Source of the DNA: a virus
Lineage: Duplodnaviria; Caudoviricetes
Virus record (IMG/VR): IMGVR_UViG_3300032303_000488
Location: 18,994-82,993 of that record
DNA length: 64,000 bases
Strand: one strand, 5' to 3'
Part shown: positions 2,554-41,773 of the stretch, piece after piece
How the letters are laid out: the number at the start of each line of letters is the position of its first letter
Numbering within the stretch: position 1 is the first letter of the stretch
Notes under the pieces: model-generated
What the model saw: only the letters and a program-made list of their open reading frames with translations
What the model was told of the DNA's origin: nothing
Database searches by the model: none
Position numbers and translations under genes: made by a program

Positions 2554-2597
2554 TTGTAGTCTCCTTGTTGGGAATGTCCAACAAAACTATTATACCA

Positions 2598-18999: not shown

Positions 19000-19680
19000 C
19001 TAATATATTGTATCATTTTTAACGTAATTTGGTGCAAAAGTCTCCACTTGAAGTTTATACGATTGCTCTGTTTCAGAAATTGGAATGCTTACCGTTACCA
19101 CAGAATTTGTCAATAAAGCACTATAAGATGTAAGATTATTTTGAAAATATGAGAAATTTCCTTTTTGTAATTTAATTATTTCTGTTGGTAAATAAAAATT
19201 TTTAGAATCAACAATGTCTAAAATATTGTTGTTTAACACAGCATTATTTGTATAAAAATTTTGTCTATGAGCAACCTGTAAAATTTCATTTCCAGTCAAA
19301 CTTTTAAGGCTAAGGGCTGCTTCAATTGCATAGTCTGGTTGTCCGTCAAAGAATGCGTATGTAAATATTGATGTGTCTGCTGTTTTTGTAGAAACCGCAG
19401 TTGTGGTAGTTGTGGTAGTGCTAGTAGTAGTAGTGGCTGAAGTTACAATTGGGTTTGGAATTATTGGAACACATCGAAGAGTTACGCTATCTATGTAACC
19501 ACCAACAATCTGTCCAGGAGCAAATTGACTTGCAGTTGCTGGAGAAAATGTTGGTCCACGACCCAGTTGTGTTCTTAGAACAGGACCATAGGGTGTGTTT
19601 ACATATTTTGATGGTTTTGGTGCTTTAATTGATGGTGGAACTTCTGTTGTGTCGACTCCCCAATTTTCCCATTCTGGCAT
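19000..19680 (-). CDS. Hypothetical virion protein with Pro/Thr-rich N-terminus
   Basis: Poly-Thr tract; lies between tail genes. Confidence 0.55.
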   Translation of the reverse strand: MPEWENWGVDTTEVPPSIKAPKPSKYVNTPYGPVLRTQLGRGPTFSPATASQFAPGQIVGGYIDSVTLRCVPIIPNPIVTSATTTTSTTTTTTTAVSTKTADTSIFTYAFFDGQPDYAIEAALSLKSLTGNEILQVAHRQNFYTNNAVLNNNILDIVDSKNFYLPTEIIKLQKGNFSYFQNNLTSYSALLTNSVVTVSIPISETEQSYKLQVETFAPNYVKNDTIY

Positions 19681-22600
19681 TATGATACCTCACTTAAATA
19701 TATAATTGTTGAAGGACCAGTTTCTGCTGTTTGATGCTCAATAGCATACACAACAAAGTTGTTGTCGGTTACAGTGTTAGGCAAAGTTTTGTTTGTGTCA
19801 TAAGAAAACTTAACTAAATCACCTAATTGAATAATTGGCATACCAAATATTTCAACAGCAACTGCTTTTCTAGGTTTAGATATTCTAGTAATTATATATT
19901 CCATTAATTCTTTTGCAGTATCTTCACTTTGAATATACGGAGAATCAATTGCAAAGGCTTTATTGCCATATGTAACTCTATTATTTTTAATATCTGTGTA
20001 TGTATTTTTATATACCTGCGAAGTATAATCACTGTTTGAAGAAAAATTACTACGATTAGTGTAAAATCCATCTACCGTTAATTCTCTTGCAATTTCTTCT
20101 GTATAGGCAACTCCAACAATGTTTAAAGTTGTGTCAATACTATCTCCGTTACCTAACCCCAAAGCAAAGTCAGAAGTATTAAAAACTAAAAATTCTGCAC
20201 GATAGGGTGTGCTGTTATATCCAGCAATTAAGTATTGTGCAAGTGCTGCTGGTTGCGGTGCTATTTTAGAACGTAATGCTGGATATGCTTTATCAAATTT
20301 AACGTTAAGATATGCACACTCTCTCATAATTGTTCCAAACTCTTCGTAGTAAATGCTATTCTCAGGAATTTCAGAAGGGGATAGACTAGATAAAAATCCT
20401 GTTCTTACTAGGGAGTTTACAGAATATTGGCTATAACTTAAATTTGAAGTTTTGTCGCCATTAAAAATTTCTGAAGATGCTTTAACTTCTGATGCCGCTG
20501 GCTTTTTCTTTAAAGTTTTTATAGCATAAACATTGTTAAACATTACTTGAGAAGAACCTCTTGTAAACAAAGATATGTTTTGAGATATTCCGTTTGTTAC
20601 TGGTTCCTTATCTTGAACAGTTCCAAGAAGTCCACCATTAAAATAAAGAGATACTCTCCAATCTTTATTATTTATTTTATTAACTTTAATTCCTAAATCA
20701 TAAATTGAATCTTCTGTTGAGTCTTGCAACTTTTTTACTTTAGAAGCAAACTTGCCAGAATCAACTAAAATATTTTGAAATCCTGAATAAAGAACTGTTG
20801 GTTTTAATATACCACCTACAAGGTTTAGTCTATAAAAAAGAATTGTTTTTGTATCTATAGAATCTGTGATTATAAAATTTTTAGTATCTGCATAATTTAA
20901 AGCAACTATTTCGTAGTAGTATCCTTCACCAGAGGTGTTTGTTAATATTCCAATTCCTCCAGATTCTCCATTAACTGGACCACTTAGATTTGTAGAAGTG
21001 TATAGTGGATAACTTCCAGAAAGTTTTTGTTTATCTAATTTGTTTCCTTTTTCATCAGTTTCTTGTGGTGTACCTAGCAACCTTAGTGTAGTGCCAAATA
21101 TATCATAGGCTACAGTTGTTCCCAAATCTTTTTTTACATAATTTATTGATGGACCATTGTTAGATTTAACTGAAAAATTTGGTCCAGACAATAAAAGTGC
21201 AGATGCTTGTAAAGAACCCGAATGCTCATAATTTTTTGTGTTTACGTTGTATTTTGGTAAACTTAAAAAGTTTTTAATTGTTGTTTTTGGTGGCTTCATT
21301 TTAGTATTTTTTAAATTTGTTTTATTAGCAACTATATCATTTGTAATTGTTGAAGATGTTTTGGAATTAAAAAGATATTGCCAATCTGTAACTAATGGTT
21401 CTATAGGGTTTTTCCAATTATAATCTAATTCTTTTTCAGTTGCTGTATGGTCTGTAATAGTTGTGCCAAATTGTCCACGACCATGTTTTGCAATTGTATT
21501 TTCTACATATGTTCCGTCAGAGTTATATTTTGGTTCTGCATAGATTCTAATTATTCCAGTAGGATACATTTTTTGATTAAGAGATAACTCAGAATAGTAT
21601 TTGATGTAGTCGTTATCATTTTGAATCCATACTTTTTGATTTCCAGCACTATATTGTATGGCATCATATCTAATAATTTCTCCATTTGCATAAAGATATC
21701 CGCTTGGTCTAGCCATCCAATAAACATTATCTCCAAAATCTATTTCATTATATTTAATTTCTTGATTAACAACTTTTGGTATTGACGTTGTTAATTTTGA
21801 TGCCAATGGCATTGCAGTTAAAACATATCCATTTGCAGTTATGTCTTCTCCATTTGGAGATTTAATTATTTTTTCTTGTCTATCATTTATTGACCACAAA
21901 ACTACCTGCTCATAAGATAAGTATTTTTCTTTATCTAATAAACTTTCCGATGATACTTGATTTGATTGTTTTTTAATATAACGATTATAATAAGTTATTT
22001 TTCCATCATTATAAATATCATTTGATTGTGATGATATGTTTATAATATTTGTTTTTTTGGTACCAGTGTCAAAACCGTAAATTGTAGTATTATAGTCTCT
22101 ATCTGCTGGGCTGTCTGGTACTAAATATTTTTTGCTCATAACGATAAAGTTGTTTGACTCGTCAAAGAACATGGTTGTTTGTGTTGCAATGGCAATGTCC
22201 TGCAGAACCTGCATAACTGTTTTGTTTGGTGAAATAAAGAAATTAGGAATAACGGTATCTTGCTCATCATTTAATCTTTTAAATGAATAATTAGAAAAAC
22301 CAATTGAGTCTAATAATGTTGCAATAATATAACTTGTTGAGGCATTTGTTAAAAATATTTCTGGGGCTATTTGAGATTCAAGTTGAAATACAAAATCTCT
22401 TAATGTTATTTTTAAATTTCTGTTAGAGTCATCATATTGAGGAAAACCATCTGCATACATTGTTTTTAAAGGAACATGATAGTCTTTATAACTATTGTCT
22501 GTTTGTTTTACTTTAGATATGGTTTCATAGAATTTTAATTGCAAATTTTTGGTAACAAAACTAAATTGCAAGTCATTTCCACTATAGGTATTTAATAAAC

Positions 22601-24050
22601 TGTTTTCATTATTTTGATTAAATACTGCGTTGTAGTCAAAGATAGACAATTCTCCGTTAGATGCTAGTAGTTGTCCTACTGGTAGAGAACTTACCCCTAA
22701 GTCTGATGCATATTTTTTTAATGAGAATGAAGATGTTACATCTGTTAAGTCTACCGCCAATCTTGGAGAAAGTTCTATGAGGTCAAATATTGTTCTTTTA
22801 TTTTTCATGCTAGTTACAACAATTCTTAAACCATTTACATATTCAAACTCTCTGTATGTTAAAATATCATTTTCTGTATAACTTGGTGTCAAACTTTTGT
22901 CTAATTCTTTTAGAAACAATTGAGCATTTGATATTGAATCTTCGCTTCTATACCACCCATAAGTTGGAGTTATTGCAACATAATTACTCAAGGTTGTCAA
23001 ACTTGTTCCACCATTATGAATATAAATAGTTCCTTTGTCCGTGTTTGATGATTTAACTAAGTATGATTGTCCAGCAAAAGTTTCTCCAGTCATGCTCGGT
23101 AGTGAGGATGTTGAAGCCAGTGTCCCAAGCAGTAAAAATTTATCTTTATAGGTTGTAAGAATTTCTGAATTTGTTAATCCGTAAGAAAGTTCAAAGTATC
23201 CGTCCCAACCAGCATCTAAAGTAAACTGGTCTGAAGTTGTAGAATAAATGTCTACCCAAGTATTACTGCTATTTAATTTTTGAACTTTCCAGGACAGTGG
23301 GGTAGATTTATAATTAACGGTAGAGTTAATAAAAAATGGGTCTTTGTTTGTAGGACTAGCAGGACTAATCAATGCCCCACTATCAATAGTACTCACATTT
23401 GTCTGAAGTTTTATAACAACTTTATTTGTTGGAATTTGATTTTTATAAACTACAAAAGGTGCTGCGTCTTGGATTAGAGAAGGACTGTCGGATGTTGAAA
23501 TACCAAAATCAATATTTCCACTAGTTCTAAATGATGACCAATATTTAAAATTGTCATTTTTACCTGCTGGATAATATCTTGGTCTTGCAAAGATACTGCT
23601 TGAATATGCTGGCAAGATGTATTTTCCATTTTCCCTTCCCCTTAATTTATTAATTCCAGAACGTGGTCTAAATTTTTTGAAACAATCTTCTAAAGACATT
23701 AAGTTTTTTTGTCTTTCGTTTGATGACAAAAAATTTACTGGTGTTGCACTTTCATTTGTATAGCCACCATCGATTGTAGTATCGTAATCTGTAAAACCAT
23801 ACCAAGTTCTATTTGCAACTAAAGTGTTTTCGTCTTCAAATACCCAAGTATTTGGAAGAGTGTTTGCAGGACTACCAGAAGTTGGTCTATTTTTATAGTT
23901 ACCAATTGATTTAATATTTTCAAAAATATTTAAATTCCATTCGGCAAGTACTTTGCTTTTTGTTTCAATGGATGCCGATTCTTGCAGATGATTTGTTAAA
24001 GCGGTATTGGTATACACTATGCTTCCTCCAGCGTCATAGAGATGTTCCAC
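19680..24050 (-). CDS. Large tail-tip / hub protein (1456 aa)
   Basis: Second gene after the TMP; C-terminal IDSPYIQ..GMPIIQLGDLV resembles tail-tip hub ends. Confidence 0.7.
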   Translation of the reverse strand: MEHLYDAGGSIVYTNTALTNHLQESASIETKSKVLAEWNLNIFENIKSIGNYKNRPTSGSPANTLPNTWVFEDENTLVANRTWYGFTDYDTTIDGGYTNESATPVNFLSSNERQKNLMSLEDCFKKFRPRSGINKLRGRENGKYILPAYSSSIFARPRYYPAGKNDNFKYWSSFRTSGNIDFGISTSDSPSLIQDAAPFVVYKNQIPTNKVVIKLQTNVSTIDSGALISPASPTNKDPFFINSTVNYKSTPLSWKVQKLNSSNTWVDIYSTTSDQFTLDAGWDGYFELSYGLTNSEILTTYKDKFLLLGTLASTSSLPSMTGETFAGQSYLVKSSNTDKGTIYIHNGGTSLTTLSNYVAITPTYGWYRSEDSISNAQLFLKELDKSLTPSYTENDILTYREFEYVNGLRIVVTSMKNKRTIFDLIELSPRLAVDLTDVTSSFSLKKYASDLGVSSLPVGQLLASNGELSIFDYNAVFNQNNENSLLNTYSGNDLQFSFVTKNLQLKFYETISKVKQTDNSYKDYHVPLKTMYADGFPQYDDSNRNLKITLRDFVFQLESQIAPEIFLTNASTSYIIATLLDSIGFSNYSFKRLNDEQDTVIPNFFISPNKTVMQVLQDIAIATQTTMFFDESNNFIVMSKKYLVPDSPADRDYNTTIYGFDTGTKKTNIINISSQSNDIYNDGKITYYNRYIKKQSNQVSSESLLDKEKYLSYEQVVLWSINDRQEKIIKSPNGEDITANGYVLTAMPLASKLTTSIPKVVNQEIKYNEIDFGDNVYWMARPSGYLYANGEIIRYDAIQYSAGNQKVWIQNDNDYIKYYSELSLNQKMYPTGIIRIYAEPKYNSDGTYVENTIAKHGRGQFGTTITDHTATEKELDYNWKNPIEPLVTDWQYLFNSKTSSTITNDIVANKTNLKNTKMKPPKTTIKNFLSLPKYNVNTKNYEHSGSLQASALLLSGPNFSVKSNNGPSINYVKKDLGTTVAYDIFGTTLRLLGTPQETDEKGNKLDKQKLSGSYPLYTSTNLSGPVNGESGGIGILTNTSGEGYYYEIVALNYADTKNFIITDSIDTKTILFYRLNLVGGILKPTVLYSGFQNILVDSGKFASKVKKLQDSTEDSIYDLGIKVNKINNKDWRVSLYFNGGLLGTVQDKEPVTNGISQNISLFTRGSSQVMFNNVYAIKTLKKKPAASEVKASSEIFNGDKTSNLSYSQYSVNSLVRTGFLSSLSPSEIPENSIYYEEFGTIMRECAYLNVKFDKAYPALRSKIAPQPAALAQYLIAGYNSTPYRAEFLVFNTSDFALGLGNGDSIDTTLNIVGVAYTEEIARELTVDGFYTNRSNFSSNSDYTSQVYKNTYTDIKNNRVTYGNKAFAIDSPYIQSEDTAKELMEYIITRISKPRKAVAVEIFGMPIIQLGDLVKFSYDTNKTLPNTVTDNNFVVYAIEHQTAETGPSTIIYLSEVS

Positions 24051-24631
24051 ATGTCAAAGTTAGTACCCCCACGTTTTTGAACACTCCAAGTAAAATCTGT
24101 AATATACATTTCTAAAACTTCTTGATATTGAGCCAAATGCGTATAAGCAGCATCATTTCTGCCAAACTCATTAAACTTATCGTACGCTAAGAAAACATAA
24201 AAAGTTCCATAATGTTTTTCATACCAATCCAACAGTTCAACACCGCCAGCACCCCCATCTACCGTGTTTTTATCTACAAGGCTGGTTGGAAGACCTGTTG
24301 TTGTATCTATATTTGGGTCAGCACTGAATGACCTTGATGGCAACATATCCCAAGATACTGACAATGTTCTTTTGTCTGCAATCCAGTAAGAACGCATACG
24401 ACCATTAACCATACGTTGACGATTTTCAATTCTTTGTACTCCAAAATCAAGGGAACTTCTGCTGTGGTCTGACAAAACTATAAAACTACCAGTGTCATTT
24501 AAAGAATTATTAATTTCATATCCAGAAGGAACATATGAGCCACCAGATAGTTCTCCTGCGTCCTCGGAAAAAAGAATAGCCTGTGGTCTAGCATACTGCT
24601 TTCTAGCATTCATGTATGTTGAATTGGTCAT
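24017..24631 (-). CDS. Distal tail (Dit-like) protein
   Basis: Directly after the TMP; beta-rich, 204 aa. Confidence 0.6.
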   Translation of the reverse strand: MTNSTYMNARKQYARPQAILFSEDAGELSGGSYVPSGYEINNSLNDTGSFIVLSDHSRSSLDFGVQRIENRQRMVNGRMRSYWIADKRTLSVSWDMLPSRSFSADPNIDTTTGLPTSLVDKNTVDGGAGGVELLDWYEKHYGTFYVFLAYDKFNEFGRNDAAYTHLAQYQEVLEMYITDFTWSVQKRGGTNFDMWNISMTLEEA

Positions 24632-27600
24632 CCGTTCAATCCTCTTATTCTTCCATTGTCAATCTGTCTAATCTTAGTCATTACCGCATTTGCTATCTGG
24701 TCTGGGTTTGAATTAGAACTTACATTGACGTTTATTTCATATGTGTTACTATTATACACTGAATCTCCTGCTACCGCTGATACTCCGCCCACAAGTCCAC
24801 CATCTGCATATCCATTAATCTTGTTAAGAGTTCCTGAACCAATTCTATCCACCGCTGACTTCTTAATAACAAATTCTCCTGGAGTAAGCATAGCAGGAAC
24901 TGTATCTGTTCCCATAGCAAATCCACCATTTGCATATCCACCTTGGGCAAGGTATGAAGGAACCATTCCTCCACGAGAAAATCCTCCAAAGAATTTACCA
25001 TTAAGAACCATTCCACCATTAGCATATTGTGTAGGAGCAGGTTCTGGATTAGGCATAACAAATCCACCAGTGGCATATCTATTTGGGAAGAGTCTACCAA
25101 AAAGATTTTTCATAGGTGCTTTAGAATCTTTAGAAGGAAGCACCGAATCAATAAACTGTTTACCAGGATTTACTGTAATGCCTATTCCCTTAATACCCAA
25201 CGAATCAAGTAACGCTTTCAATGCAGCCTTTCGTTCTGCCAAATCTGCTGCAATTTTTTCTACAGCCTGTGGTCCAAATCTATCAGTAGGATTTAGCATA
25301 ATGGATTCTATATCTTTTACAGTAAATCCTCCAGGAAGATGTGCCTCAATATATGGGAAACTTGCTGGAGTCTTGATACCAGGAATTTCTTTACGCATAA
25401 TATTTTGAGTAGATTCAAGAAGTCCGTGCATTGTTGGGTATGTTGAGAATATTGATGATAATTTTTGCACACCTGGATTTCTTTGTCCTAGTCTGAGTGC
25501 TTGGTCCCAAATTGAAAGACTATCTCCCATAGAAACTGTTGCCTTACCCAAAGTGCTAGGCTTTAGTTTTATGGTGTTGTCTCCATATCTCTGAACGTAT
25601 CTACTAAACGGATTTACAAGTTGATTAAAATTATTGATTGCCTGTTGAGAAGGAGTTTGCTTACCACGATTCCAAATAGAACCTTCGGTCATAAGCATGT
25701 CTTCTTTTGTTGTCAGGAATCCGTATGCTGGTGTTTGCTTTGAAGTAGCATTTGCAGGAATACCCATCATGTTTTGTTCAACTGCTATTCTGTTCATTAG
25801 ACTATCTGAGGTAGAACTTCTAATACCAGGAACTCTCATGTTGCCATAGAAGTTATCCTTAAGCATGTTGTGCAGTGCGTCATTGGAAAGATTAAACCCT
25901 AATGTTGGTGTAAGTTTTTTAACCTTGCTGGCAATTCCCTGTGTTCCACTAACCATACCAACACCTGATTCATAGAATTTATCCGCCCAAGTTCCCAAAG
26001 CCGCCAAAGCATTTTTACCACCACGAATACCCAAACCTGTTTTAAGAAAATTACCTACTACTCCCAAACCTTTTCCAGCAAATTTTGCTAAAGAACCACC
26101 AAAGGCTCCAAGTGGTGCAAGAAGTGCATTTAGAATACCTCCGCCAACATCACCTTGACCAAAAGCGGTAGCAGAATCTCCTGCAAGCATTCCAGCACCA
26201 ATACCTGGAGTAAAATATGCGGCAGTTCTTCCAAATTCCATAAGACCAGAGTCATCGTGTGCCAAAGCCCATCGTTGTCTTCTTACTACAGGGTCTTCTA
26301 TTTTTAGCCATTCACCATTATTCCAAGGCTCGTCAAAGAAACTTGATGGATGCCATTTGCCATAAGCATCTAAACCTCCAGGGTCTCTAGGCTTAGGCTT
26401 AGGTTTACCACCATCTTTGTATCCAACCAAACCACCATTGGCAAATTTTTGCATTGGATTTTTTGATGCATTTTGAAGTCTATAGAATAAGTCTCTCAAA
26501 CCACCAGTCATACCAGATTGCATATCTCCAGTTTTTGCTGTCAGATTCATAAATTTTGCTAGTTCTGGATTATTTTTAATCATATCCTGAATAAGAGGAT
26601 TTGTTTTAGCATTAATTGCAGCAATATTGATAGGGTCTAATCCACTCTTTTTTAAATCAAAACCTAACATGTTTGCTATTTTATTTATTTGTGGTGTAAG
26701 ACTCTTTTTATGTGTTAGACTATCTGTAAATTTAGATGATTGGAATCCTCCAAAAAAATATGCATCTTTAAAATCTGCTGCACTTATTTCAGAAAGTCCA
26801 TTCTTTTTAAGAATGTCATTTGTTTGACGTAAATTAAATCCTGAAGATTTCATGGCTTCTACAATGCTTGATGTTCTTTGTGCAAGTTCTTTAGTAAATA
26901 GATAGTCTACAGAATCTTGTCCTTCTGCAGTTAATGATGTAATTCCTAAATCAATATTTTCAAATCTTTTTGTTTTTTTATTAAACAAAATATTCATTCC
27001 ATGAGTATCACTATTACCTAAAAGTGCATTTGTTGGTAATGCTTCATCAATATATTTTCTTAACGCTTTAGCAAGGGTGTTAGCACCCTCAACTTTATTT
27101 GGTGCATCATTAATATATTTTCTTAACCATCCTTGTGAAGAAGGAATTAGGTCTGGAATAATCTTACTTCCAACAGTTGTTCTATTAAGCATTTGAAGTT
27201 TTGGTCCACCCAAACCTAATTTAGCCCAAATAGTTGAACCAATGAATTCTCCTGTTGTTTCAACAGTAGTGTCTGGTCTTTTTACATAATACTTTTCTCC
27301 ATTAATTATTCTATATGCACCAGGGGTTGCTCCTTCTGCCTCATTCAACAAATGTGTTGGAGTTATCTTTAAACCTTTTTTGGGTGTCTTTAATACTAGA
27401 GGGAATCCAAATGCTTGTGCTGCTTTTTTACCTACTCCCTTTACCGCCCCAGGCACAGCAGCAAAAGCATAATCTATTGGGTCTGTTGGGTCAAATATAA
27501 AATCTTTATAGAATTGACTTGTATTCTTTGCACCAGTCTTAATTGTTTTTGCAGCGGTATTATTTAGATAAGCACTAGGATTTCCACCACCAGCATAAGT

Positions 27601-30600
27601 ACCATTAATTAATCCTTGAAGCCAACCCATAGGGTCCAAGAATGGGTTAGGTGCACCTGTATCTCTTTTTACCATTCCTCCAGGAGCATATCCGACCATG
27701 CCACCATTGGCAAAAAGTTTAGTCATGTTTCCAAGTAGACCACCCATTCCATTTCCACCATACATGTGATTTTCTATTAGAGAAATTGGTGCTCCCCCTC
27801 CAGTATATAGTGGTTTCTTTTTCTTAGGGAATATTCTAGGAATACCAGATTTAGGTGGGAATGGCTCTTTACTTCCTGGAATCCAAATTCTAGAATTTCT
27901 GTATAGTCTACGTTCCTTACCAGTTTCTGGGTCAATGTTTGACTTAAGAATTCTTGACCACCAAGAACCAACTTCCATTCCGCCAGGAAGTGTGCTTTCT
28001 GCTGTAGACCAATAACTTTCTCCGTGACTTACAACCCACCTACCCTTTTCATCCCATTGTGGTGCAGGGCGTGGACCAATATATCCACCATCTGCATAGC
28101 CATTGTAGCCACCATTTTTAAAGTGACGAACCATACCTCCATCTGCATATTTTGGAGTATTTGGAGATAATGTTGGATGTAAATTTACAACATTAGGATT
28201 AGTATAATATGAATTCCAGGCTTTTTCCTGAGCCTTATCAGTAAACATTGATTTCTTTGTAAGTAAATTTGTATTTAGTCCAAGTGTTTTAAATCCTTCT
28301 GCTACTTTGTCTGGTCCCCAAAGTCTAGACATAGCACTTGCTAAGATTTTTGCTTCTGCTTTATCTAATCCATTATAATTTCCATACATCTTATTAGCAA
28401 TAAGATTATTTCTTGCAGACAAATCTTTTCTACCAGGAATAAATCCAGTCCAATAATTATCTTGTGCAATTTTATCAATATATGGGACACCTAATCTTCT
28501 AGATTCAATCAAGGCTTTGTAATATTTTATTGTTCCAGCAACCGAAGTAAAAGACGCACTTTCATTTGTTCCATCTTTAAAGTCAACCAATGACCTTTGT
28601 CCCTTAACGTGGCTAGGTCCTCTTCCATTATACCAACCCTTGTTTGCGTCACCAAGATTATATCCAAACAATGATTTTTCAAAGAAATTGTGTGAGTAAT
28701 TATACCATCTTGGGTCATCTGCTCTGGTTATTGGTTTTGCTAAATCATCTAACGTATATGGCTTGGGCTTAGGCTTCTTTTTAAACTTATCCACCATACC
28801 GCCAGCGGCAAACCCTAGCCTATCTGCTTGGTTTAATTTATCGAGGGTATTTACACCAATAGTCTTTACAGCATTTGCTCTAATAACATATTCTCCATTA
28901 GAAAGCATTGCTGGAATACTGTCGCTTGTTCCGCTACCTGGACCTGTAATGTGACCGCCAATTGCTGCTTTAGGAACTAGTTTTCCATCTACAACATCAT
29001 AGCCTGGAAGATATTTCAGTTGTGCTTTTTGTTTATTTGCTATAAATTGTAAAGGATTGTTCCAAAATTCTGAATTAAAAATATCACCTATACCACCCAA
29101 TTGTTGCATAGTAATATTAAATCCAGCATCCAGATAACCATTAAAATCTTTTTTATTTAATCCTTTTTCAACAACTGGTGCTGTTCCTGCTTGAACTGGT
29201 GTATTAGTTGTAAGTTGAGATGTTAGGTCAGCAATGCTTGCAGATAAATCATTAACAGAATTTGACAATCCTGCTTGACTATCTTGTAATGGTTTTATTT
29301 CTGCTTTTCTAGCATCGTCTAAACCTGTTTTTTGATTATCCAAAGAAGCCTGAATATCATTGTTTTGAATGTTTATTGCTGCCGTAGCCGCAGCAGCAAT
29401 ATCTCCTCTATTTAATGCTTCTGCAAGCGTTAGTTGTCCTTGTTGAGATTTTGCAATTTGTTCATTTAATGTTTTTAATTTTTCAATTTGAGAAATACGT
29501 TTATCATATCTATCATTAATTTTACCTTCAAGTGCTTGAATATCTTCTGTTTGGTTTTGAATTCCTGTAAGTTGTTTCTTTTTTTCATTTATTTTACTAT
29601 TAATTATGTCTTGTTTTTTAATTGCATTGTTAATATTTTTTTCTTGTTGTATTCTTTGCTTATCTCCACCGAATTCTAGGGTATTTAGAATATCCTGAGT
29701 TAATGTAACGCCTTTAAGCATTGCTTCTCCAACCAGTTCTTGTTCTGCCAAAGTTAAGTTTTTTATGGCTTCTGCAGCCTTTGCTGCTTCTGGACCTAAA
29801 CTTGCAAGAGCAGCGTTAAAAAATTCTATTCCTGTTGCATTTGGCATTTTATTTGTAATAGCAATTAATTGTTCATACTCGATATTAAATGTTTTTGTAC
29901 TAATTGTTCCAGTTTGCAATTGTCCAGACAATCCACTAAGGTATGAACCAAAAGTTGCTGCATTTGCTTTTAGTTGTTCTAGATTCTGTTGGTCACGGAA
30001 TACTGGTGTGTCTAAGAATCCCTCTCCCTTGCCAGTTATCTGGTCAGCAATAGTACTTCCATTATTTGACCAGTAACCTCCAAATTCTTTTGTAAAGTTT
30101 TTTGCTGCTTGCTGTGCATTTTGCTTTAATGCTGCCTGACCCTTTGGGTCATTTAGAGAGAATATGTTTTCTGAAATGCTTATCTTTTCTTTTCCTGCTT
30201 CATTCTTAATGGCATCAATAATTGCTTTAACCTGTTCTTTTTCCATACCCTGACCATATAGGTCAACGGCAAGAGCCTTCAAAGCATTTGTAACTTCAAC
30301 ATCAGATAGGCTCTTTAGTTTTTCAGCCTGTGGTTTATACACTTCTTTAAACTGGTCACTGGCTTGGAATTGTTTTGCAATAGATGCTTGTGCTTGTGTC
30401 TGGTCGCTACCAGTTATTTGCATTGCACGAACACCAGTAAGTTTAATATCTGTTCCAAAGAAATCATTTATTTTTGTCAATTTATCTTGAGTAATTTTTA
30501 AAGTTTCTGTAACTGCTGAATATGCATCTGCATTTTTCTTAATAAGTGGAAGAATAATTTTATCGAATGCTTCGTATGCTGTAATTGCTAAACCTACATA

Positions 30601-33600
30601 TGGAATCAATTTACCAAATAAAGGAATAAGTCTTCCAACAACAGGACCAAGATTTTTAAACATTCCAAGAACACCAGTAACCATAGATGCCATACCAGCA
30701 ATTTGTCCTGCTTCTCCTGGAAGAACCATGGAAGCCATACCAAGACCCATAGATGTTCCAAACATTCTTCCTTGAAATTTTCCTGGGTCCATCTTTGAAA
30801 CATTTACTCCAGCACTAGTAAAGAAATTGTTATATTTAGTTGACATTTTACCAAGACGTGATTTTTGGAATTTTGTTGCTGGGTTGGGACCATACATTGT
30901 TCCAGTCATAGGTGTTTCAGTTTTTGGATAATATGACTGAGTTACAGGGTCATAACCCATATCTGCAATTACTCTTCTATTTGTGTTATTTGGAATAAGT
31001 ATATTCTGTGACTGTGAACCTGCTGGGGTAATAAAAGCACCCTCACTTATTACACGTCTTGCTCCTGTTGCTACTGCACGACCAACTTGTTCTCCAGCAT
31101 TTTCTGCCTGAGAAACACTAGCATCAATTCCCTTGATAGCACCCTTACCAATATTTTGTCCAGACTCTTCTGCAATTTTTGATGGAGATGCTTGCTTAGT
31201 AGCATCTTTTACTCCCTGAACAATTGACTCTTCAGTTTGTGTTTTTATTTGAACACCAACTGATTTTAATGCTGTTTTTGCAGAATTTGAAAGATTTGGA
31301 TTTGCGGCAAGTGCTTCCATGCTTTGATATTTAGGTTCATTAAAATGTCCTAATTGGAAGTCTTTTCCAGATTGTCCAGTCATTCTTTCATATAGTGTTT
31401 TTGCACCTCCACCTAAAGATAAGTATCCACGAACACCAGTGCTACCCAAAGAGTATATTGATTTTCTTGCTCTTTCTAAGAACTTTCCTCCTGCACGTCT
31501 TGGCATAGTTGGCATGCTTCCATAAAAATCTTCTGATAATCCTAAAGTTCTTGATAATGCAAGTTTTTCTGCATCTGTTGTAGCCAATTGTAATGCTTCT
31601 TTTTCTACAAATTTTGCAGCAGATATTCTAGCAAGACGCATTCTTTCTTCTGTATTTTGAATATTTGCAAATGTTGTTTCAAATTCTGAATTTATTTTAT
31701 TTGTAAATACTTTAAAAATATTTTCATATTTAGCATAGATTGGGTCAAATAACCCCTTAGCAACTGATGCTTGACTTGGTTTAATTCCCATTGACTCACC
31801 TATACGGAGTGCACCAAAACTTAATATTTGTGCAGGGTCTCTAATTAGACTTGCATTTTTAGACATGTTTTCTCTTGCATCTTGAAGTCTTAGTCCATAT
31901 TCTGCATATGTTGGAACCTCTCCTGGCTTACCCTGTCTGAATCCAGGAATATTTCCAGATACTAATTGATTTATAAAATGTGGATTTCTTGCTACTACCG
32001 AAGCAGGAATAATGGCTTCACCATTAGATACCTTGGCTAAAATAGAATCACTAGTACCTGTTCCAGGACCAGAAATAATACCACCAGTGGCATATTTTCT
32101 AATAGGTCCTCTAGGTGTGATTGGAACATTAAAACCTCTCTGTGCGGCTACAGAACGCTCATAGGCTGCTGTTAGCATGTCTACTGCTGCCGCTTCGGAT
32201 GTAAATGTTTGCTTTAGTTTAGAGTGAACTTGGTCAAGAGATGATGCGATAGCAGCAGCATTAATTTGTTCCTGAGTCATATAGTTTACTTGTTCACCAA
32301 GACTTAGAGATGATTTACCAGTTTTATTAAAGATATCTTTAACAAGGGCAAAACCCTTAATTACGTTTGCCACAGCATTAGCAATAAGACCAAATGACAT
32401 AAGTAGAACTGGACCAACAATACCAGCAACAGCAACAAACTTAACTATAAATCCTTTAACTCCTTCGCCAAGACCATTAAAGTTTTTTAATACTTCTGAA
32501 CCAAAATTAATTAATGGCGTGATAGCCTTCATAAATTGTTCACCAACAGGTGCTAATTGTGCTTGAAAATCAGCAATAGCCTTTTGAAACTTATATAGCG
32601 GTGATTCTGAAATTTTGTTTAATTCTTTTTGTGATAGCATGGCTAGTTCAAGGCTACTTTGTCCTGCTAACCTTAATACCTCGGATGCTTGGCTACCTTG
32701 AGCAATAACGTTTTTAAACAATGTGGACATACGAGCAAATTGAAATTTACCAAATAGTTGTTCAATTGCTCTTGCTCTATTTAATGGGTCTAGAGTATCT
32801 AATGCTTGAGCAAAATCTACTACTGTTTTCTTTAGGTCACCTTTATCTTTTTCAACAATTCCCTTGATGTTAATACCAAATCCAGAAAGCATTTTGCTTG
32901 CAGTATTAGTAGGATTAATTAAAGATGCTAAACCAGATTTCAGTGCGTTGGCACCTTCTGACGCATTAATACCACCTTCTTTCATTGCTGTTAGGAAGAA
33001 AGCAAGGTCTTTGACATCTCCACCTAGTTGTTGAATAACAGGAGCAGCCTTTGGAATGGCTGTTGTCATATCATCAATATTAAGAACTGTTTGGTTTTCA
33101 ACAGCGTTCAGGAAGTTAATGTTTTTTGCAAGGTCTTTACTAGAGATATTGAAAGCATTAGTTAAAGATATAGTTGTTTGCAAAGCCTTCTGTTGGTCTA
33201 CCCCACCAAGAACTGAAAGTTTTGTAGCACTGTTTACTTGAGCAAGTAGGTCTGCACCTTTTTTACCAGTTGCGGCTGCTGATGCAGCCATATCCATACT
33301 ATCTTTTACTGCTACACCATACTTAGTGTATTCTAAAGCAAGTTGCTTTATTTGCTCAACCATCTTATTTGTTTCAGCAGTGGTTGTTCCTAAATCTCCA
33401 TATACACGCTTAAGTTTAATAGAGGCTTCTTCAATTTGCTGATAGGCTTTCATTGCAGCCCCACCCATAATTGAAAGTGGGATAGTGAAACCAACCATCA
33501 ACTGGCGACCAGCCCATTGGGTATTCTTACCAAAGTTCAATAGGTTTGTTGAACCTTGTTTTAAAAGTTGATTTAATAACTGTTGACGTTGTGCGGCTAT

Positions 33601-34080
33601 CTGTGTTTTTGTTCCAAGATTTTGCATATCAAGTGCAAGTGGTCTAACCTTGATTGCTTGCATTGCACCATTAGCATCACGACCAAGTTTAATATATTGT
33701 GATTGTAGGTCTTTTACTCTTTCACGAGCAACCTTGTTAATGGTTTCAAATTCAGATTTAAATAATTTACTAAATGTTTTAGATGCTCCACCAGCATATC
33801 TAAAATACTCACCCATTGTGAGTTTGTTCTTTTCGAGGGAGTGGGTGAATTGTTCGGCAGTAGTTCTAACCTTAACCATACTTGCACTAAATGCACCAGT
33901 AGAGTTAATTGAGTTTATAAGATTTTGTTGTAAGTTCCTGGAGTCAGCAGCGGACGCTGCCCCCATCTTTGCCATTTGTGTATGGAAGGCTGAGATTTGA
34001 TTTTGAAGTAATCTGATACTGTCCATTGCGGAAGCAGTATCAATATTAATTCTAATATTGGATTGGATATCATCAGCCAT
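24628..34080 (-). CDS. Tape measure protein (3150 aa) with C-terminal cargo cassettes
   Basis: TMP core motifs (TQWAGRQLMVGFT, LTDLAFF-like segment, GANALKSGLASL); follows the tail chaperones; repeated GPGTGTSDSIPAMLSNGE motifs; kinase, LysM and DUF3626-like segments. Confidence 0.93.
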   Translation of the reverse strand: MADDIQSNIRINIDTASAMDSIRLLQNQISAFHTQMAKMGAASAADSRNLQQNLINSINSTGAFSASMVKVRTTAEQFTHSLEKNKLTMGEYFRYAGGASKTFSKLFKSEFETINKVARERVKDLQSQYIKLGRDANGAMQAIKVRPLALDMQNLGTKTQIAAQRQQLLNQLLKQGSTNLLNFGKNTQWAGRQLMVGFTIPLSIMGGAAMKAYQQIEEASIKLKRVYGDLGTTTAETNKMVEQIKQLALEYTKYGVAVKDSMDMAASAAATGKKGADLLAQVNSATKLSVLGGVDQQKALQTTISLTNAFNISSKDLAKNINFLNAVENQTVLNIDDMTTAIPKAAPVIQQLGGDVKDLAFFLTAMKEGGINASEGANALKSGLASLINPTNTASKMLSGFGINIKGIVEKDKGDLKKTVVDFAQALDTLDPLNRARAIEQLFGKFQFARMSTLFKNVIAQGSQASEVLRLAGQSSLELAMLSQKELNKISESPLYKFQKAIADFQAQLAPVGEQFMKAITPLINFGSEVLKNFNGLGEGVKGFIVKFVAVAGIVGPVLLMSFGLIANAVANVIKGFALVKDIFNKTGKSSLSLGEQVNYMTQEQINAAAIASSLDQVHSKLKQTFTSEAAAVDMLTAAYERSVAAQRGFNVPITPRGPIRKYATGGIISGPGTGTSDSILAKVSNGEAIIPASVVARNPHFINQLVSGNIPGFRQGKPGEVPTYAEYGLRLQDARENMSKNASLIRDPAQILSFGALRIGESMGIKPSQASVAKGLFDPIYAKYENIFKVFTNKINSEFETTFANIQNTEERMRLARISAAKFVEKEALQLATTDAEKLALSRTLGLSEDFYGSMPTMPRRAGGKFLERARKSIYSLGSTGVRGYLSLGGGAKTLYERMTGQSGKDFQLGHFNEPKYQSMEALAANPNLSNSAKTALKSVGVQIKTQTEESIVQGVKDATKQASPSKIAEESGQNIGKGAIKGIDASVSQAENAGEQVGRAVATGARRVISEGAFITPAGSQSQNILIPNNTNRRVIADMGYDPVTQSYYPKTETPMTGTMYGPNPATKFQKSRLGKMSTKYNNFFTSAGVNVSKMDPGKFQGRMFGTSMGLGMASMVLPGEAGQIAGMASMVTGVLGMFKNLGPVVGRLIPLFGKLIPYVGLAITAYEAFDKIILPLIKKNADAYSAVTETLKITQDKLTKINDFFGTDIKLTGVRAMQITGSDQTQAQASIAKQFQASDQFKEVYKPQAEKLKSLSDVEVTNALKALAVDLYGQGMEKEQVKAIIDAIKNEAGKEKISISENIFSLNDPKGQAALKQNAQQAAKNFTKEFGGYWSNNGSTIADQITGKGEGFLDTPVFRDQQNLEQLKANAATFGSYLSGLSGQLQTGTISTKTFNIEYEQLIAITNKMPNATGIEFFNAALASLGPEAAKAAEAIKNLTLAEQELVGEAMLKGVTLTQDILNTLEFGGDKQRIQQEKNINNAIKKQDIINSKINEKKKQLTGIQNQTEDIQALEGKINDRYDKRISQIEKLKTLNEQIAKSQQGQLTLAEALNRGDIAAAATAAINIQNNDIQASLDNQKTGLDDARKAEIKPLQDSQAGLSNSVNDLSASIADLTSQLTTNTPVQAGTAPVVEKGLNKKDFNGYLDAGFNITMQQLGGIGDIFNSEFWNNPLQFIANKQKAQLKYLPGYDVVDGKLVPKAAIGGHITGPGSGTSDSIPAMLSNGEYVIRANAVKTIGVNTLDKLNQADRLGFAAGGMVDKFKKKPKPKPYTLDDLAKPITRADDPRWYNYSHNFFEKSLFGYNLGDANKGWYNGRGPSHVKGQRSLVDFKDGTNESASFTSVAGTIKYYKALIESRRLGVPYIDKIAQDNYWTGFIPGRKDLSARNNLIANKMYGNYNGLDKAEAKILASAMSRLWGPDKVAEGFKTLGLNTNLLTKKSMFTDKAQEKAWNSYYTNPNVVNLHPTLSPNTPKYADGGMVRHFKNGGYNGYADGGYIGPRPAPQWDEKGRWVVSHGESYWSTAESTLPGGMEVGSWWSRILKSNIDPETGKERRLYRNSRIWIPGSKEPFPPKSGIPRIFPKKKKPLYTGGGAPISLIENHMYGGNGMGGLLGNMTKLFANGGMVGYAPGGMVKRDTGAPNPFLDPMGWLQGLINGTYAGGGNPSAYLNNTAAKTIKTGAKNTSQFYKDFIFDPTDPIDYAFAAVPGAVKGVGKKAAQAFGFPLVLKTPKKGLKITPTHLLNEAEGATPGAYRIINGEKYYVKRPDTTVETTGEFIGSTIWAKLGLGGPKLQMLNRTTVGSKIIPDLIPSSQGWLRKYINDAPNKVEGANTLAKALRKYIDEALPTNALLGNSDTHGMNILFNKKTKRFENIDLGITSLTAEGQDSVDYLFTKELAQRTSSIVEAMKSSGFNLRQTNDILKKNGLSEISAADFKDAYFFGGFQSSKFTDSLTHKKSLTPQINKIANMLGFDLKKSGLDPINIAAINAKTNPLIQDMIKNNPELAKFMNLTAKTGDMQSGMTGGLRDLFYRLQNASKNPMQKFANGGLVGYKDGGKPKPKPRDPGGLDAYGKWHPSSFFDEPWNNGEWLKIEDPVVRRQRWALAHDDSGLMEFGRTAAYFTPGIGAGMLAGDSATAFGQGDVGGGILNALLAPLGAFGGSLAKFAGKGLGVVGNFLKTGLGIRGGKNALAALGTWADKFYESGVGMVSGTQGIASKVKKLTPTLGFNLSNDALHNMLKDNFYGNMRVPGIRSSTSDSLMNRIAVEQNMMGIPANATSKQTPAYGFLTTKEDMLMTEGSIWNRGKQTPSQQAINNFNQLVNPFSRYVQRYGDNTIKLKPSTLGKATVSMGDSLSIWDQALRLGQRNPGVQKLSSIFSTYPTMHGLLESTQNIMRKEIPGIKTPASFPYIEAHLPGGFTVKDIESIMLNPTDRFGPQAVEKIAADLAERKAALKALLDSLGIKGIGITVNPGKQFIDSVLPSKDSKAPMKNLFGRLFPNRYATGGFVMPNPEPAPTQYANGGMVLNGKFFGGFSRGGMVPSYLAQGGYANGGFAMGTDTVPAMLTPGEFVIKKSAVDRIGSGTLNKINGYADGGLVGGVSAVAGDSVYNSNTYEINVNVSSNSNPDQIANAVMTKIRQIDNGRIRGLNG

Positions 34081-34107: not shown

Positions 34108-34425
34108 TTAGATGAGACCACCGAGGGCGGAATCTCCTAATTTAATGCCAGATGCTTCTTCCACAATTTTGTAGACAGTCGGTAAGTCTAGAAGGTCTTC
34201 TAGTGCCTTAAGGTCTGTTGCAATTTCTGGCTTATACTGCTTAAGAGCGATTTGTACACACTCCATTAGCAAGTTCATTGACTTGTCATTGTCATCAGCA
34301 ACTTTTGAGATTTCATCAAACTTTTTCATAAAATCACGAAGAAGAGAAATCTTTAATGGTCTGATGTCAACAGTTGTTCCATCAATAAGAGTAATTGTCT
34401 TCTCTTCATTAATAGTTGTTGTCAT
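34108..34425 (-). CDS. Tail assembly chaperone, short (G-like)
   Basis: Directly upstream of the TMP; paralogous to the N-terminus of 34465..35187. Confidence 0.75.
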   Translation of the reverse strand: MTTTINEEKTITLIDGTTVDIRPLKISLLRDFMKKFDEISKVADDNDKSMNLLMECVQIALKQYKPEIATDLKALEDLLDLPTVYKIVEEASGIKLGDSALGGLI

Positions 34426-34464: not shown

Positions 34465-35187
34465 TTAAGCAATGTCGTTTACAACTTCGTAACCTAATCC
34501 GTGACCAATTCCAAATCCTGCTTGCTGGGCTTTGACTCCTTGTAGGGCTGTAATATCATTTGGATTTCCACTACCGATACCGCTTGCTTTTGCGGCTACC
34601 CTTGCTTTCATGGCTTCCCAGGGGTCCTCTTCTTGCTTGCCACTTGCTTCATCTAAATCAATTCCTTTAAGAGATGCGGTAAATTTTTTATCCTGATACT
34701 CCATCTCTCTTTTTTGCTCAAGGATTGACATTAATTCTGCCAAACATATAGAAGATTCTAGTTCATCATAGTTCTTCCAAATACCTAAAAGAAAAGCCTC
34801 AGATTCTAATTTATTTAAATCTAAATCATCCCATCCAGACTTAGAAGATGACTCTTCATTTACTTGTTTTTGTTCTTCTTGAACTTCATCTGATTCTTCG
34901 CTATCCATCTTAATTCCACCAGCATACTCCACAATTTTGTACATAGTTTTTAAATCAAATGTGTCTTCAAATTTATCTATAGTATCAATTTCTGGATAAA
35001 ACTGTTTCATTGACACAGTGGCGGCTTTTGTAAGAATTTCAACAATTTCATGCTCATCTTTTGCATTTTTTACTAAATTGAATTCTTCCATAAATTGTCT
35101 CATATACTTTATTTTAAGTGGAGATATCTCTATCTGTTTTCCATAGATTGTATAAACATGATTCATATCATATATTTTTGTAGGCAT
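34465..35187 (-). CDS. Tail assembly chaperone, long (GT-like)
   Basis: Between major tail and TMP; G-like N-domain plus a C-terminal extension. Confidence 0.7.
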   Translation of the reverse strand: MPTKIYDMNHVYTIYGKQIEISPLKIKYMRQFMEEFNLVKNAKDEHEIVEILTKAATVSMKQFYPEIDTIDKFEDTFDLKTMYKIVEYAGGIKMDSEESDEVQEEQKQVNEESSSKSGWDDLDLNKLESEAFLLGIWKNYDELESSICLAELMSILEQKREMEYQDKKFTASLKGIDLDEASGKQEEDPWEAMKARVAAKASGIGSGNPNDITALQGVKAQQAGFGIGHGLGYEVVNDIA

Positions 35188-40522: not shown

Positions 40523-41773
40523 TTATTTTAGTAAATCGGATGTTGTGAGGAAACTTCCGCCCCATACTGATTTTTCCACCAGTACTGGTTCCTGAATGAC
40601 CTCACCGAGGTCACCAGACTTGCGGAAAGCGGTGTCTGCTTCAACAGCATCGATACGCTTTCCAAGATTGCCAAAGCCTGTTTCTGCATCTGCAACCTGT
40701 GCGGTTACAAATCCAACTGACTTCTTTAGTTCAGCAACTTCTGCTACTAGTGATGCATTTGCATCTGCTAGTGACTTTACGATTGCTGCAATGTCGCTAA
40801 AGGCTGTTGTAACTGTTGTGCCTAGTTCTGTAACTGCCTTAGCAATTACTTCCTCTGAACCTGGAACAACATCTTCTACAACTTCTTCTACATGTGCTGG
40901 CTCGGCTACTAGAGCCTCTTCAACAACTTCTTCTGTAGCAGGAGTGTCAACTACAACTTCTGCCTCTGGAACGACATCTACTGATTCAACGTTTACGTTT
41001 TCATCGGTCATGTTATCATTCTCCTTTTTAATAGTCTTAGAAGTATTAATGCCTTTAGCACTATCTACTAAGAACTTTATCATGTTAAGTTTGTCAGCAT
41101 CTGACTTCTCAACAAAACCTATATTCTGCATACTTGCACCAGTAACTGGGCTAGTTGCAGATTCTTCTTCTGTGATTGTTACCAATCCTGATTCTTTGTC
41201 CCAGAATACATTTTCTAGAACTGCATCGGTACCCTCGCCTGTAATAGTATTAACACCGTTTACTTTTTCAACAGATAGGATGTTTGCAAACTGATTTGCT
41301 GGACTATCAACAAGGGATAACTCAACCAAGTCATAGTCTTTAATAATTCTAATAGCGGAATCGCTTTTTTCGTCATAGCCATCATCCCACTTGTTCATCT
41401 TGCCACCAATAGAGAATCCAGTAAGTGTGCCATCTAAAACCTTTTCCCAAGTGTCTTGTGCACCTTTTGAAACATAAGCAGATACATATACACCCTGATA
41501 AAACTTCTTTGTTTCTGGGTCAAAATATTTATCTTCCTTAAATGCTACCATCTTGCCTACTGCTTTTGGCTGGTGCATTTCACGGATGTTACCACGGAAC
41601 TTAGAGAAGGCTGATACGGATGCTTCTGGGGTAACGATATCGTTTTGCTTGTCAATATTATCAAGCGTGGCAAATCCAGATACAATTCTACGTTCTGCAT
41701 CTATCTTTGTGAGAGGCATAGAAATACGAACATTATTTCCGTCAATGTCAAAATGTGCTTTCTGAATACTCAT
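40523..41773 (-). CDS. Prohead protease with C-terminal scaffold
   Basis: VSGFATLDNIDKQND, REMH, GFSIGG, ELSLVDSPAN; acidic coiled-coil tail. Confidence 0.9.
   Translation of the reverse strand: MSIQKAHFDIDGNNVRISMPLTKIDAERRIVSGFATLDNIDKQNDIVTPEASVSAFSKFRGNIREMHQPKAVGKMVAFKEDKYFDPETKKFYQGVYVSAYVSKGAQDTWEKVLDGTLTGFSIGGKMNKWDDGYDEKSDSAIRIIKDYDLVELSLVDSPANQFANILSVEKVNGVNTITGEGTDAVLENVFWDKESGLVTITEEESATSPVTGASMQNIGFVEKSDADKLNMIKFLVDSAKGINTSKTIKKENDNMTDENVNVESVDVVPEAEVVVDTPATEEVVEEALVAEPAHVEEVVEDVVPGSEEVIAKAVTELGTTVTTAFSDIAAIVKSLADANASLVAEVAELKKSVGFVTAQVADAETGFGNLGKRIDAVEADTAFRKSGDLGEVIQEPVLVEKSVWGGSFLTTSDLLK

Follow-up and report, generated by a model that had tools for sequence, protein, structure and literature searches.

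Proteins that a phage injects into its host act before phage genes are expressed and hence matter for host takeover and for immediate defences. The injected proteins known are either packaged in the head, as are T4 Alt and the polyvalent proteins, or single fusions, such as the P23-45 RNA polymerase and T5 pb2C. In the tail, the tape measure proteins (TMPs) gpH of lambda (gpH* plus gpHC) and pb2 of T5 (pb2* plus pb2C) lose a C-terminal piece by cleavage, which is held in the tail tip and thought to be the first component out. In lambda, gpHC is ~14 kDa in size, derives from the C-terminal part of gpH, which is rich in glycine, and remains attached to gpI at the tail tip, the exact position of its cleavage site not being known (PMC12617516); in T5, cleavage after R1127 yields pb2C, which has a muralytic motif, is retained in the tail and is proposed to come out first (PMC10038345); and residues 1022-1066 of JBD30 gp46 are predicted to form a TMP-anchoring hook after a speculative cut at R1066 (PMC11445458). 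Thermus phage P23-45 has a TMP of 5,002 amino acids (aa), gp96, that is fused to the virion RNA polymerase (Chaban et al. 2024, PMC10770324). Polyvalent proteins (Iyer et al. 2017, PMC5512222) are giant virion-associated proteins that string together ADP-ribosyltransferase (ART), protein-kinase, GNAT and peptidase domains and are predicted to be co-injected with DNA; tape measure proteins go unmentioned in the paper on them, where "tape" has 0 occurrences. Finally, Sle1 from actinobacterial contractile injection systems is a TMP-derived carrier with exchangeable C-terminal functional domains, one of which is a toxin (Nagakubo et al. 2026, PMC13277306). Here, we describe the TMP gene of the siphophage in IMG/VR record IMGVR_UViG_3300032303_000488 (82,993 bp, ~82% complete by estimate), of which bases 18994-82993 form the window, i.e. 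the whole stretch of 64,000 nucleotides (nt) that was analysed. The gene (24628..34080 of the window, minus strand; P0001) is a single open reading frame (ORF) of 3,150 aa, in which copies of the TMP end module bracket four exchangeable cassettes. We regard this architecture as well supported and the delivery system that it suggests as plausible.

Results

The tape measure protein carries three copies of the canonical end module

The ORF at 24628-34080 is a TP901-type TMP and the only TMP of the phage. This identity follows from matches above cut-off to PF10145 (aa 247-444, E 8e-26) and TIGR01760 (aa 205-556, E 4e-33), from matches of aa 1-670 to many TMP families in PHROGs and from a conserved gene position, with two chaperone-like genes and an Ig-domain major tail protein gene upstream, genes for a 204-aa protein and a 1,456-aa minor tail protein downstream, and the gene order around the TMP identical in 10 related loci. 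All features of the protein given below lie on the minus strand, in window coordinates. The N-terminal core (aa 1-660, 32101..34080) contains a transmembrane-like segment at aa 536-581 (hydrophobic window) and is 65-96% identical across all full-length relatives. The TMP body (aa 706-1700, 28981..31965) is variable at aa 706-1120, hydrophobic and Gly-rich at aa 1121-1200 and coiled-coil-like at aa 1201-1700, has 22-84% identity among relatives and matches the TMP family phrog_3547 at aa 1416-1775. A first-pass annotation, made from the letters of the window, had let the helical body end near aa 1620, followed by unrelated blocks bounded by GG motifs; consistent with this, we found that the coiled-coil-like composition (AEKLQ 45%) gives way at about aa 1620-1700 to blocks rich in Gly, Pro and aromatic residues.

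All of the motif positions listed in that annotation proved correct, and the motif count is far above that of shuffled sequences: the TMP contains 14 [YF][AK]xGG motifs versus 0.42 expected (5,000 shuffles, shuffle maximum 6), with 13 within aa 1701-3150 versus 0.29 expected. These [YF]AxGG-type sites lie at aa 663, 1757, 1978, 1987, 1995, 2123, 2131, 2162, 2546, 2554, 3002, 3019, 3049 and 3091 (in the same order, nt 32094, 28812, 28149, 28122, 28098, 27714, 27690, 27597, 26445, 26421, 25077, 25026, 24936 and 24810). The GTSDS..GE-type motif occurs three times, at nt 32058 (aa 675), at nt 28932 (aa 1717) and, as GTDTVPAMLTPGE, at ~nt 24888 (~aa 3060). Together with the relatives described below, the extended delimiter consensus is [GK][YF]A[ND]GG[ML]V (209 distinct occurrences in 24 proteins), and a Lys or Arg lies at most three residues upstream in 74% of first-in-cluster motifs versus 32% expected.

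On sequence comparison, the delimiter motif is what flanks the canonical TMP end module and is hence not new, as M2 and T (see below) match lambda gpH, JBD30 gp46 and the C-termini of TMPs in PHROGs. M2 matches residues 1020-1071 of JBD30 gp46 (PDB 8rk3_A) with an E of 4e-6 and residues 720-784 of lambda gpH with a score of 63 (shuffles 33 ± 5, maximum 52), the aligned stretch of gpH having FATGG at its start and YATGG at its end; in lambda, this stretch is part of gpHC. R1066 of gp46 aligns with R1754 here, three residues ahead of FAAGG. T, which comprises the last 149 aa, has matches at the C-termini of 19 PHROG families, mostly TMPs and some unnamed. When aa 1701-3150 were searched against phages with tblastn, 244 cultured-phage records matched, only by the M2 or T motif, and nearly all of the matched proteins are annotated as TMPs. 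The end module consists of the unit "GxGTSDSIPAxLSxGEfVI" with [YF]AxGG flanks and, after it, a terminal segment that plugs the tail tip. Judged by sequence, it is present here in triplicate: as M1 (aa 661-705, 31966..32100; YATGG..GTGTSDSILAKVSNGE), as M2 (aa 1701-1765, 28786..28980), which ends in RLGFAAGGMV and is 80-95% identical in relatives, and within T (aa 3002-3150, 24631..25077), which consists of a delimiter cluster, the third end-module copy (GTDTVPAMLTPGEFVI) and a final ~55 aa and has 40-84% identity in relatives. T and M2 are 38-45% identical, and M1 and M2 are 59-63% identical over 35-37 aa.

Between M2 and T lie cassettes A-D, 1,240 aa in all, separated by delimiter cluster 1 (YADGGMV, FKNGGY and YADGGYI; aa 1978-2000, 28081..28149), cluster 2 (FANGGMVGYAPGGMV; aa 2123-2140, 27661..27714) and cluster 3 (FANGGLVGYKDGG; aa 2546-2560, 26401..26445). 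These short clusters look like two end-module flanks without the middle. We also noted an 18-nt KPKPKP-encoding repeat at 26390-26407 and 28760-28777, after the delimiters FAAGGMVDKFKK and YKDGG, which probably encodes a flexible linker. A T-type motif (60% over 57 aa, E 5e-7) also occurs in a lysozyme/endolysin-annotated protein of the myovirus Synechococcus phage S-SCSM1 (NC_070962.1, 164229-164384), so the end module is not limited to siphophage TMPs.

Cassettes are exchanged between lineages

We searched 5.8 billion proteins with aa 1764-3004 and obtained 21 related TMPs of 2,319-4,022 aa, which, with L002 and L003, two loci of this clade from IMG/VR, made up a comparison set of 23 related giant TMPs. 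As shown by block-wise BLAST, the N-terminal 660 aa and T are conserved in this set, and cassettes A-D are present, absent, replaced or reordered, such that cassette identity and number vary, which the first-pass annotation had suggested testing in related phages, and cassette order varies as well. Cassette A was found in 5 relatives and B in 10, 6-7 relatives have C, and most have D; P0003 and P0004 show the order B-D-x-C; and the TMPs of relatives contain many stretches with no counterpart in the window. Motif-based segmentation gave 39 segment families, 23 of them singletons.

Further, the ends of high-scoring segment pairs (HSPs) on P0001 cluster at aa 2541-2546 (where 13 HSPs start), 1977-2001, 2128-2148 and 3001-3020, with secondary sites at aa 2224-2241 and 2643-2661 that mark boundaries between adapter and domain. 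Among the 1,582 HSP ends from all pairs of proteins, 43% lie within 15 aa of a motif versus 12% in the null (maximum 14.9% in 1,000 trials), a 3.5-fold enrichment, and with non-redundant breakpoints the values are 31% versus 12.7%. Synonymous divergence (dS) is discordant between backbone and cassettes. In the comparison of the window with relative L046, dS is 1.04 for the N-terminal backbone versus 0.27-0.32 for cassette B, the C adapter and cassette C; in that with relative L053, it is 0.40 for the backbone versus 1.09 for cassette D, at 36% amino acid identity. This discord shows that cassettes have been exchanged between lineages and, with the breakpoint enrichment, bears out the view of exchangeable, unrelated cassettes fenced by the GG motif. 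The cassettes are under purifying selection: the ratio of nonsynonymous to synonymous divergence (dN/dS) is 0.20-0.45 in every cassette tested versus 0.08 for the N-terminus. At the DNA level, the delimiters are repeats of 22-26 nt with 70-88% identity, and one pair (26420-26445 and 27689-27714; 23 of 26 nt identical) brackets cassette C.

In P0005, P0007, P0008 and L002, we observed two M1 copies flanking a 187-aa insert (aa ~650-970), implying that the N-proximal copy of the end module is also an insertion site. A search for shorter forms of the array gave ten matches of 363-1,536 aa, none demonstrably a stand-alone cassette; nine of the ten are on contigs of <9 kb and one (1,106 aa) is on a 36-kb contig. 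Besides L002 and L003, the scan of IMG/VR revealed a sister clade (L006-L044) with TMPs of 3,200 to more than 4,000 aa and 0-4 motifs. Its members have an ~55% identical N-terminus and no GTSDS-type motif by the pattern used, and one of them, L023 (8218-13443), has an OmpA-family peptidoglycan-binding domain near the TMP end (E 1e-12), a hint that the host may be a diderm. The TMP gene itself had no megablast match in 50,697 phage records.

Cassette D has a predicted ADP-ribosyltransferase fold

The domain of cassette D (aa 2647-3001, 25078..26142; core ~aa 2716-2974) follows an adapter (aa 2561-2646, 26143..26400) made up of a KPKPKP linker, a conserved segment and a Gly-rich hydrophobic stretch at ~aa 2620-2690, with a hydrophobic window at aa 2643-2668. 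A phmmer search with D against 1.84 billion representatives found only 27 proteins, mostly giant and TMP-like. The distant matches P0037 (4e-8), P0039 (1e-5), P0040 (3e-5) and P0044 (7e-4) all contain PF12294 (DUF3626) above cut-off. The AlphaFold2 (AF2) model of D, built from a 15-sequence alignment, has a predicted local distance difference test score (pLDDT) of 75.6. In a Foldseek search of the PDB, SopF (7dn9 and 7dn8) came top (E 1e-5), followed by DarT, OspC3 and CteC; VIA-align gave a Z of 10.8 for SopF (201 aligned residues) and ~10 for DarT, with KptA, OspC3/CopC, CteC, pierisin and cholera toxin among the lower matches. All 17 matches with a Z of at least 5 are ART-type or related NAD+-dependent transferase folds. 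E2912 and Y2832 do not vary across 15 sequences, nor do several Gly residues, and Y2786 hardly varies; the "YIEAH" of D aligns with the "YIEAH" of SopF, with E2912 on the catalytic Glu (E 1.3, not significant alone). SopF, a Salmonella effector, is a member of the DUF3626 family (PMC6682159) and an ART with an I-Y-E triad (PMC10333799).

We conclude from the structural model that cassette D has a SopF/DUF3626-type ART fold with a predicted ART activity. The DUF3626-like label that the first-pass annotation had given to one block thus stands, indirectly, on the transitive phmmer matches and the fold. Because at least one cassette has this predicted fold, the opposite picture, in which the blocks are ordinary TMP helices with no catalytic folds, does not hold. 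A six-frame search with PF12294 gave no match, a weak result since control genomes were equally silent. In BFVD, the fold of D is found in phage proteins named DUF3626, NAT_SF, ParB-like N-terminal and minor capsid protein, contexts that are typical of injected polyvalent or MuF-type proteins. We also noted that the Gly-rich hydrophobic stretch before the ART domain recalls the glycine zipper of the type VI secretion system effector Tde1, which is common to some TMP C-terminal regions and needed for membrane translocation (PMC10240207); a similar role for the D adapter is a lead.

Cassette C is a probable HipA-like kinase

The domain of cassette C (aa 2228-2545, 26446..27399) follows a conserved pre-domain, the C adapter (aa 2141-2227, 27400..27660). 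Seven sequences, of a shallow family with 60-81% identity, share invariant K2267 (VK), E2278, D2358-x-H2360-x-x-N2363 and D2377 (IDLG). These motifs are collinear with those of Escherichia coli HipA, including LIGATDGHAKNF, and LLGNSDTHGMNILF lines up with HipA LIGATDGHAKNFSV. Among ESM Atlas neighbours, a HipA_2 cluster stands at 0.93 with 156 shared features, which we treat as a lead only. A word-based search for stand-alone relatives of the domain found none. Taking the motifs and the language-model lead together, and with no statistical support from the comparisons given below, we consider it probable that cassette C is a HipA-like kinase. The kinase label given to a block in the first-pass annotation is thus plausible on motifs and the language-model lead.

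Cassettes A and B, the adapters and the cargo of related phages

Cassette A (aa 1766-1977, 28150..28785) begins with a KPKPKP linker and has no assigned fold. It is found in P0006, P0009 and P0019 (56-59% identity) and in P0007 and P0010 (32-36%), is absent elsewhere and has a dN/dS of 0.20. Cassette B (aa 2001-2122, 27715..28080) is 38-90% identical in its 10 relatives. It is LysM-like by eye and had been labelled LysM; no tool confirmed this, as there was no Pfam match at E<=10, no six-frame match to PF01476 and no profile match in the PDB, and the LysM hidden Markov model (HMM) found nothing in this genome or in five related records. Searches of Pfam, PHROG and NCBIfam with the single blocks A, B and C returned nothing. 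Likewise, the PT-TG-like segments that had been seen before two of the blocks were not recovered, with no Pfam PT-TG match of any block at E<=10, the C and D adapters included. The conserved adapters before C and D are better described as family-specific pre-domains.

The adapters recur in relatives with other partners. In P0017, the C adapter is followed by a first GNAT-like copy (aa 2027-2334) that overlaps the adapter end, and in P0007 and P0020 by sequence of no recognised kind; in P0005 (aa 2831-2940), the D adapter stands without an ART domain. We observed that in P0022, a single sequence, the C adapter precedes a different sequence (aa ~2520-3000) with an HEFQH (HExxH) motif, possibly a zinc metallopeptidase. 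A GNAT-like cassette of ~300 aa, which is not in the window, is present in two copies in P0017 and singly in P0007, L002, P0008, P0005 and L003. RGKGIAQ forms its acetyl-CoA loop, the eight top profile matches in the PDB are GNATs without exception (best E 0.003), and four of its seven members have weak matches to Pfam Acetyltransf_1. On these sequence matches, relatives carry a putative GNAT acetyltransferase cassette. Hence several effector-type enzyme domains occur per giant virion protein: ART and kinase-like domains here, and GNAT in relatives. Pfam scans of this TMP and 12 relatives found no MuF, ParB-N or DarB-type helicase/methylase.

Proposed delivery of the array and alternative explanations

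We favour, as rather likely, a reading in which a TMP with a duplicated end module has its exchangeable enzyme array delivered to the host ahead of the DNA. M2 and T are the duplicated end module bracketing four independently exchangeable cassettes, and the cassette fence, [KR]x0-2[YF]AxGG[MLIFY]V, is the flank of the end module itself. Because TMP C-termini plug the tail tip and exit first (T5 pb2C and lambda gpHC), the C-terminus of this TMP would leave the tip first, and the M2-T array would enter the host before the DNA. A lambda- or T5-like cut near M2 would release a 1,450-aa "TMP-C" holding the whole array. Since ART, GNAT and kinase domains need NAD+, acetyl-CoA and ATP, the cassettes would be expected to act in the cytoplasm, where they may serve as pre-made host-takeover or anti-defence effectors, much as has been proposed for polyvalent proteins (PMC5512222) and demonstrated for the RNA polymerase fused to the P23-45 TMP (PMC10770324).

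The delimiter might provide a short stretch of homology at which cassettes are exchanged, and possibly a processing site too. The breakpoint enrichment and the DNA repeats make the recombination role likely. For a role as a structural strand of the end module, we see the balance as even, and the position of the motif relative to lambda and JBD30, with the upstream Lys or Arg, makes a processing role conceivable, if somewhat doubtful; the three roles are not exclusive. We put forward more tentatively that the TMP might be an injected polyprotein, cut beside [KR]x0-2[YF]AxGG once the tail is assembled or during ejection, whose cassettes are freed with their own adapters and reach the cytoplasm ahead of the DNA, the payload being re-equipped by recombination at the delimiter. 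The glycine-rich segment of the D adapter would then serve membrane translocation.

Several points weigh against delivery of an enzyme array. First, more than half of the homology breakpoints lie away from any motif, and the delimiter repeats in the DNA are short and imperfect. Second, the assignments of the cassettes are uneven. For D, the Pfam DUF3626 HMM (PF12294) gave no hmmscan match at E<=10, and the superposition on SopF is moderate only (root mean square deviation 5 Å, 16% identity). For C, there was no Pfam match, HipA_C and HipA_2 included, and no profile match in the PDB; hhalign against E. coli HipA gave a probability of 0.3; and the Smith-Waterman score against HipA was under the shuffle mean, the motifs alone lining up. 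Its AF2 model (6-sequence alignment) has a pLDDT of 44.6 and is unusable. Cassette A has no match in Pfam, PHROG or the PDB, and no fold could be assigned to cassette B. Third, folded domains of 300-400 aa, in three or six copies each, are implausible in the tube lumen, so an unfolded state and refolding after ejection must be assumed; crossing of the inner membrane by the cassettes would be a further assumed step. Fourth, no cultured relative is known. The TMP N-terminus and cassette C were found in none of 185,579 species genomes scanned, and hence we found no host or prophage.

We weighed four other explanations for the array. The one that survives best, although we think it unlikely, is an envelope-penetration kit, in which the cassettes bind or cut peptidoglycan, insert in membranes and act in the periplasm. 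Muralytic domains are present in the TMPs of many phages of Gram-positive bacteria, and the C-terminal pieces of the T5 TMP are released into the periplasm. The OmpA-type domain of the sister-clade TMP, the LysM-like look of cassette B, the T motif in the cyanophage protein annotated as a lysozyme and the Gly-rich hydrophobic segment of the D adapter agree with such a kit. However, no lysozyme, transglycosylase or peptidase family matches any cassette, the LysM label was not reproduced, and ART, GNAT and kinase-like folds use substrates of the cytoplasm.

That the cassettes are filler, which sets or varies tail length or spaces the tube, with enzyme folds that are decayed captured genes, is improbable. 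TMP length does set tail length, the family spans 2,493-4,022 aa and most cassettes are without a recognisable family; yet the low dN/dS of every cassette tested, the invariance or near-invariance across divergent copies of Y2786, Y2832, E2912, RGKGIAQ and the kinase motifs, and a composition that is globular-like rather than coiled-coil-like all argue against it. Hardly more credible, and if anything slightly less so, is a set of true toxins for phage or bacterial conflict, which kill or arrest non-permissive cells or block superinfecting competitors. Polymorphic toxins likewise combine a trafficking part with a shared pre-domain and a C-terminal enzyme that varies, the structural relatives of D include DarT and cholera toxin, and HipA is itself a toxin. 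In keeping with the first-pass annotation, however, no immunity gene follows the TMP: conserved tail genes come next in the window and in 10 of the 10 related loci examined, there are no spare cassettes downstream, and the cargo belongs to a virion protein that is essential and goes into each host cell. Finally, an assembly chimera, in which the repeated motif misjoined metagenomic reads, can be practically dismissed because, despite the 22-26-nt repeats in the gene and the metagenomic origin of the record, 23 independent contigs, taken from different samples and sources (JGI, ENA and Logan), have the same plan, intact ORFs of 2,300-4,000 aa and the same flanking genes, and the repeats are far shorter than a read.

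Neighbouring genes and other observations

Directly upstream of the TMP gene, the ORFs at 34108-34425 (minus strand, 105 aa) and 34465-35187 (minus strand, 240 aa) have a common N-terminal phrog_10504, and the latter additionally has phrog_10474. They look like the chaperone pair as separate paralogous genes instead of the usual G/GT frameshift. The minor tail protein gene (1,456 aa; 19680-24050, minus strand) has a G+C content of 0.30-0.31 versus 0.35-0.39 in its neighbours, as expected for a recently exchanged receptor-binding region. A 250-aa ORF at 24656-25408 (plus strand), antisense to the Gly-rich TMP end, probably arises as an artefact from runs of GGN/NCC codons. Next to the major capsid gene lies an HK97-type prohead protease (PF04586, E 2e-8; ~41276-41461, minus strand, in ORF 40523-41773); it was the only protease found in the record, in which a search for Gly-Gly proteases (C48 and C39) gave none.

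Discussion

If the favoured reading of an enzyme array delivered ahead of the DNA is true, the tail lumen would be a second, modular delivery route for exchangeable sets of ART, kinase and acetyltransferase domains, which would explain TMPs much longer than tails require. The short fence peptide could serve as a natural insertion grammar when proteins are to be loaded into phage tails. The finding also allows the conserved [YF]AxGG-flanked module to be read in terms of function in lambda gpH, where its role and cleavage site are unknown (PMC12617516). Should the more tentative polyprotein reading be true, the TMP would amount to a phage version of polymorphic toxins, carried in the tail and with several enzymes.

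Single TMP enzymes (T5 pb2C and P23-45), multi-enzyme polyvalent proteins and swappable TMP-derived carriers (Sle1) are already known, and our literature search found no paper on an array of several enzymes that lies within a phage TMP, is fenced by a motif and recombines. Lambda gpH (aa 731-785) and JBD30 gp46 have a [YF]ATGG-flanked module homologous to M2 and T. In lambda and T5, the released piece is ~90-160 aa, with at most one small domain, whereas here, with the module in triplicate, copies two and three enclose 1,240 aa and four unrelated cassettes, and cleavage is putative. P23-45 gp96 is similar in being a giant TMP with an active enzyme that works in the host cytoplasm right after injection (PMC10770324); unlike the TMP described here, it has one N-terminal, lineage-fixed enzyme and no motif-fenced array, exchange, ART, kinase or GNAT.

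Cassette D differs from its best structural match, SopF, with which it shares 16% identity, in its likely partners. SopF is a type III effector that is activated by eukaryotic ARF GTPases, and nothing suggests such a target or activator for D. Sle1 is the cargo of a phage-tail-like particle and not the ruler of an infectious phage; it has a single functional domain, and no GG-type delimiter is described in the abstract on it. Polymorphic toxins (Zhang et al. 2012) share with this TMP a trafficking part, shared pre-domains and recombining, variable C-terminal enzymes; here, in contrast, there is no immunity gene and no spare cassette, several enzymes stand in tandem in place of a single terminal toxin, and no PT-TG or other pre-toxin family was detected. 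Polyvalent proteins are tied to packaging through the head, portal or MuF, and their markers (MuF, ParB and the DarB-type helicase/methylase) are absent here. We infer that the TMP array may be the tail-borne counterpart of the head-packaged polyvalent proteins and of the TMP-RNA polymerase of P23-45.

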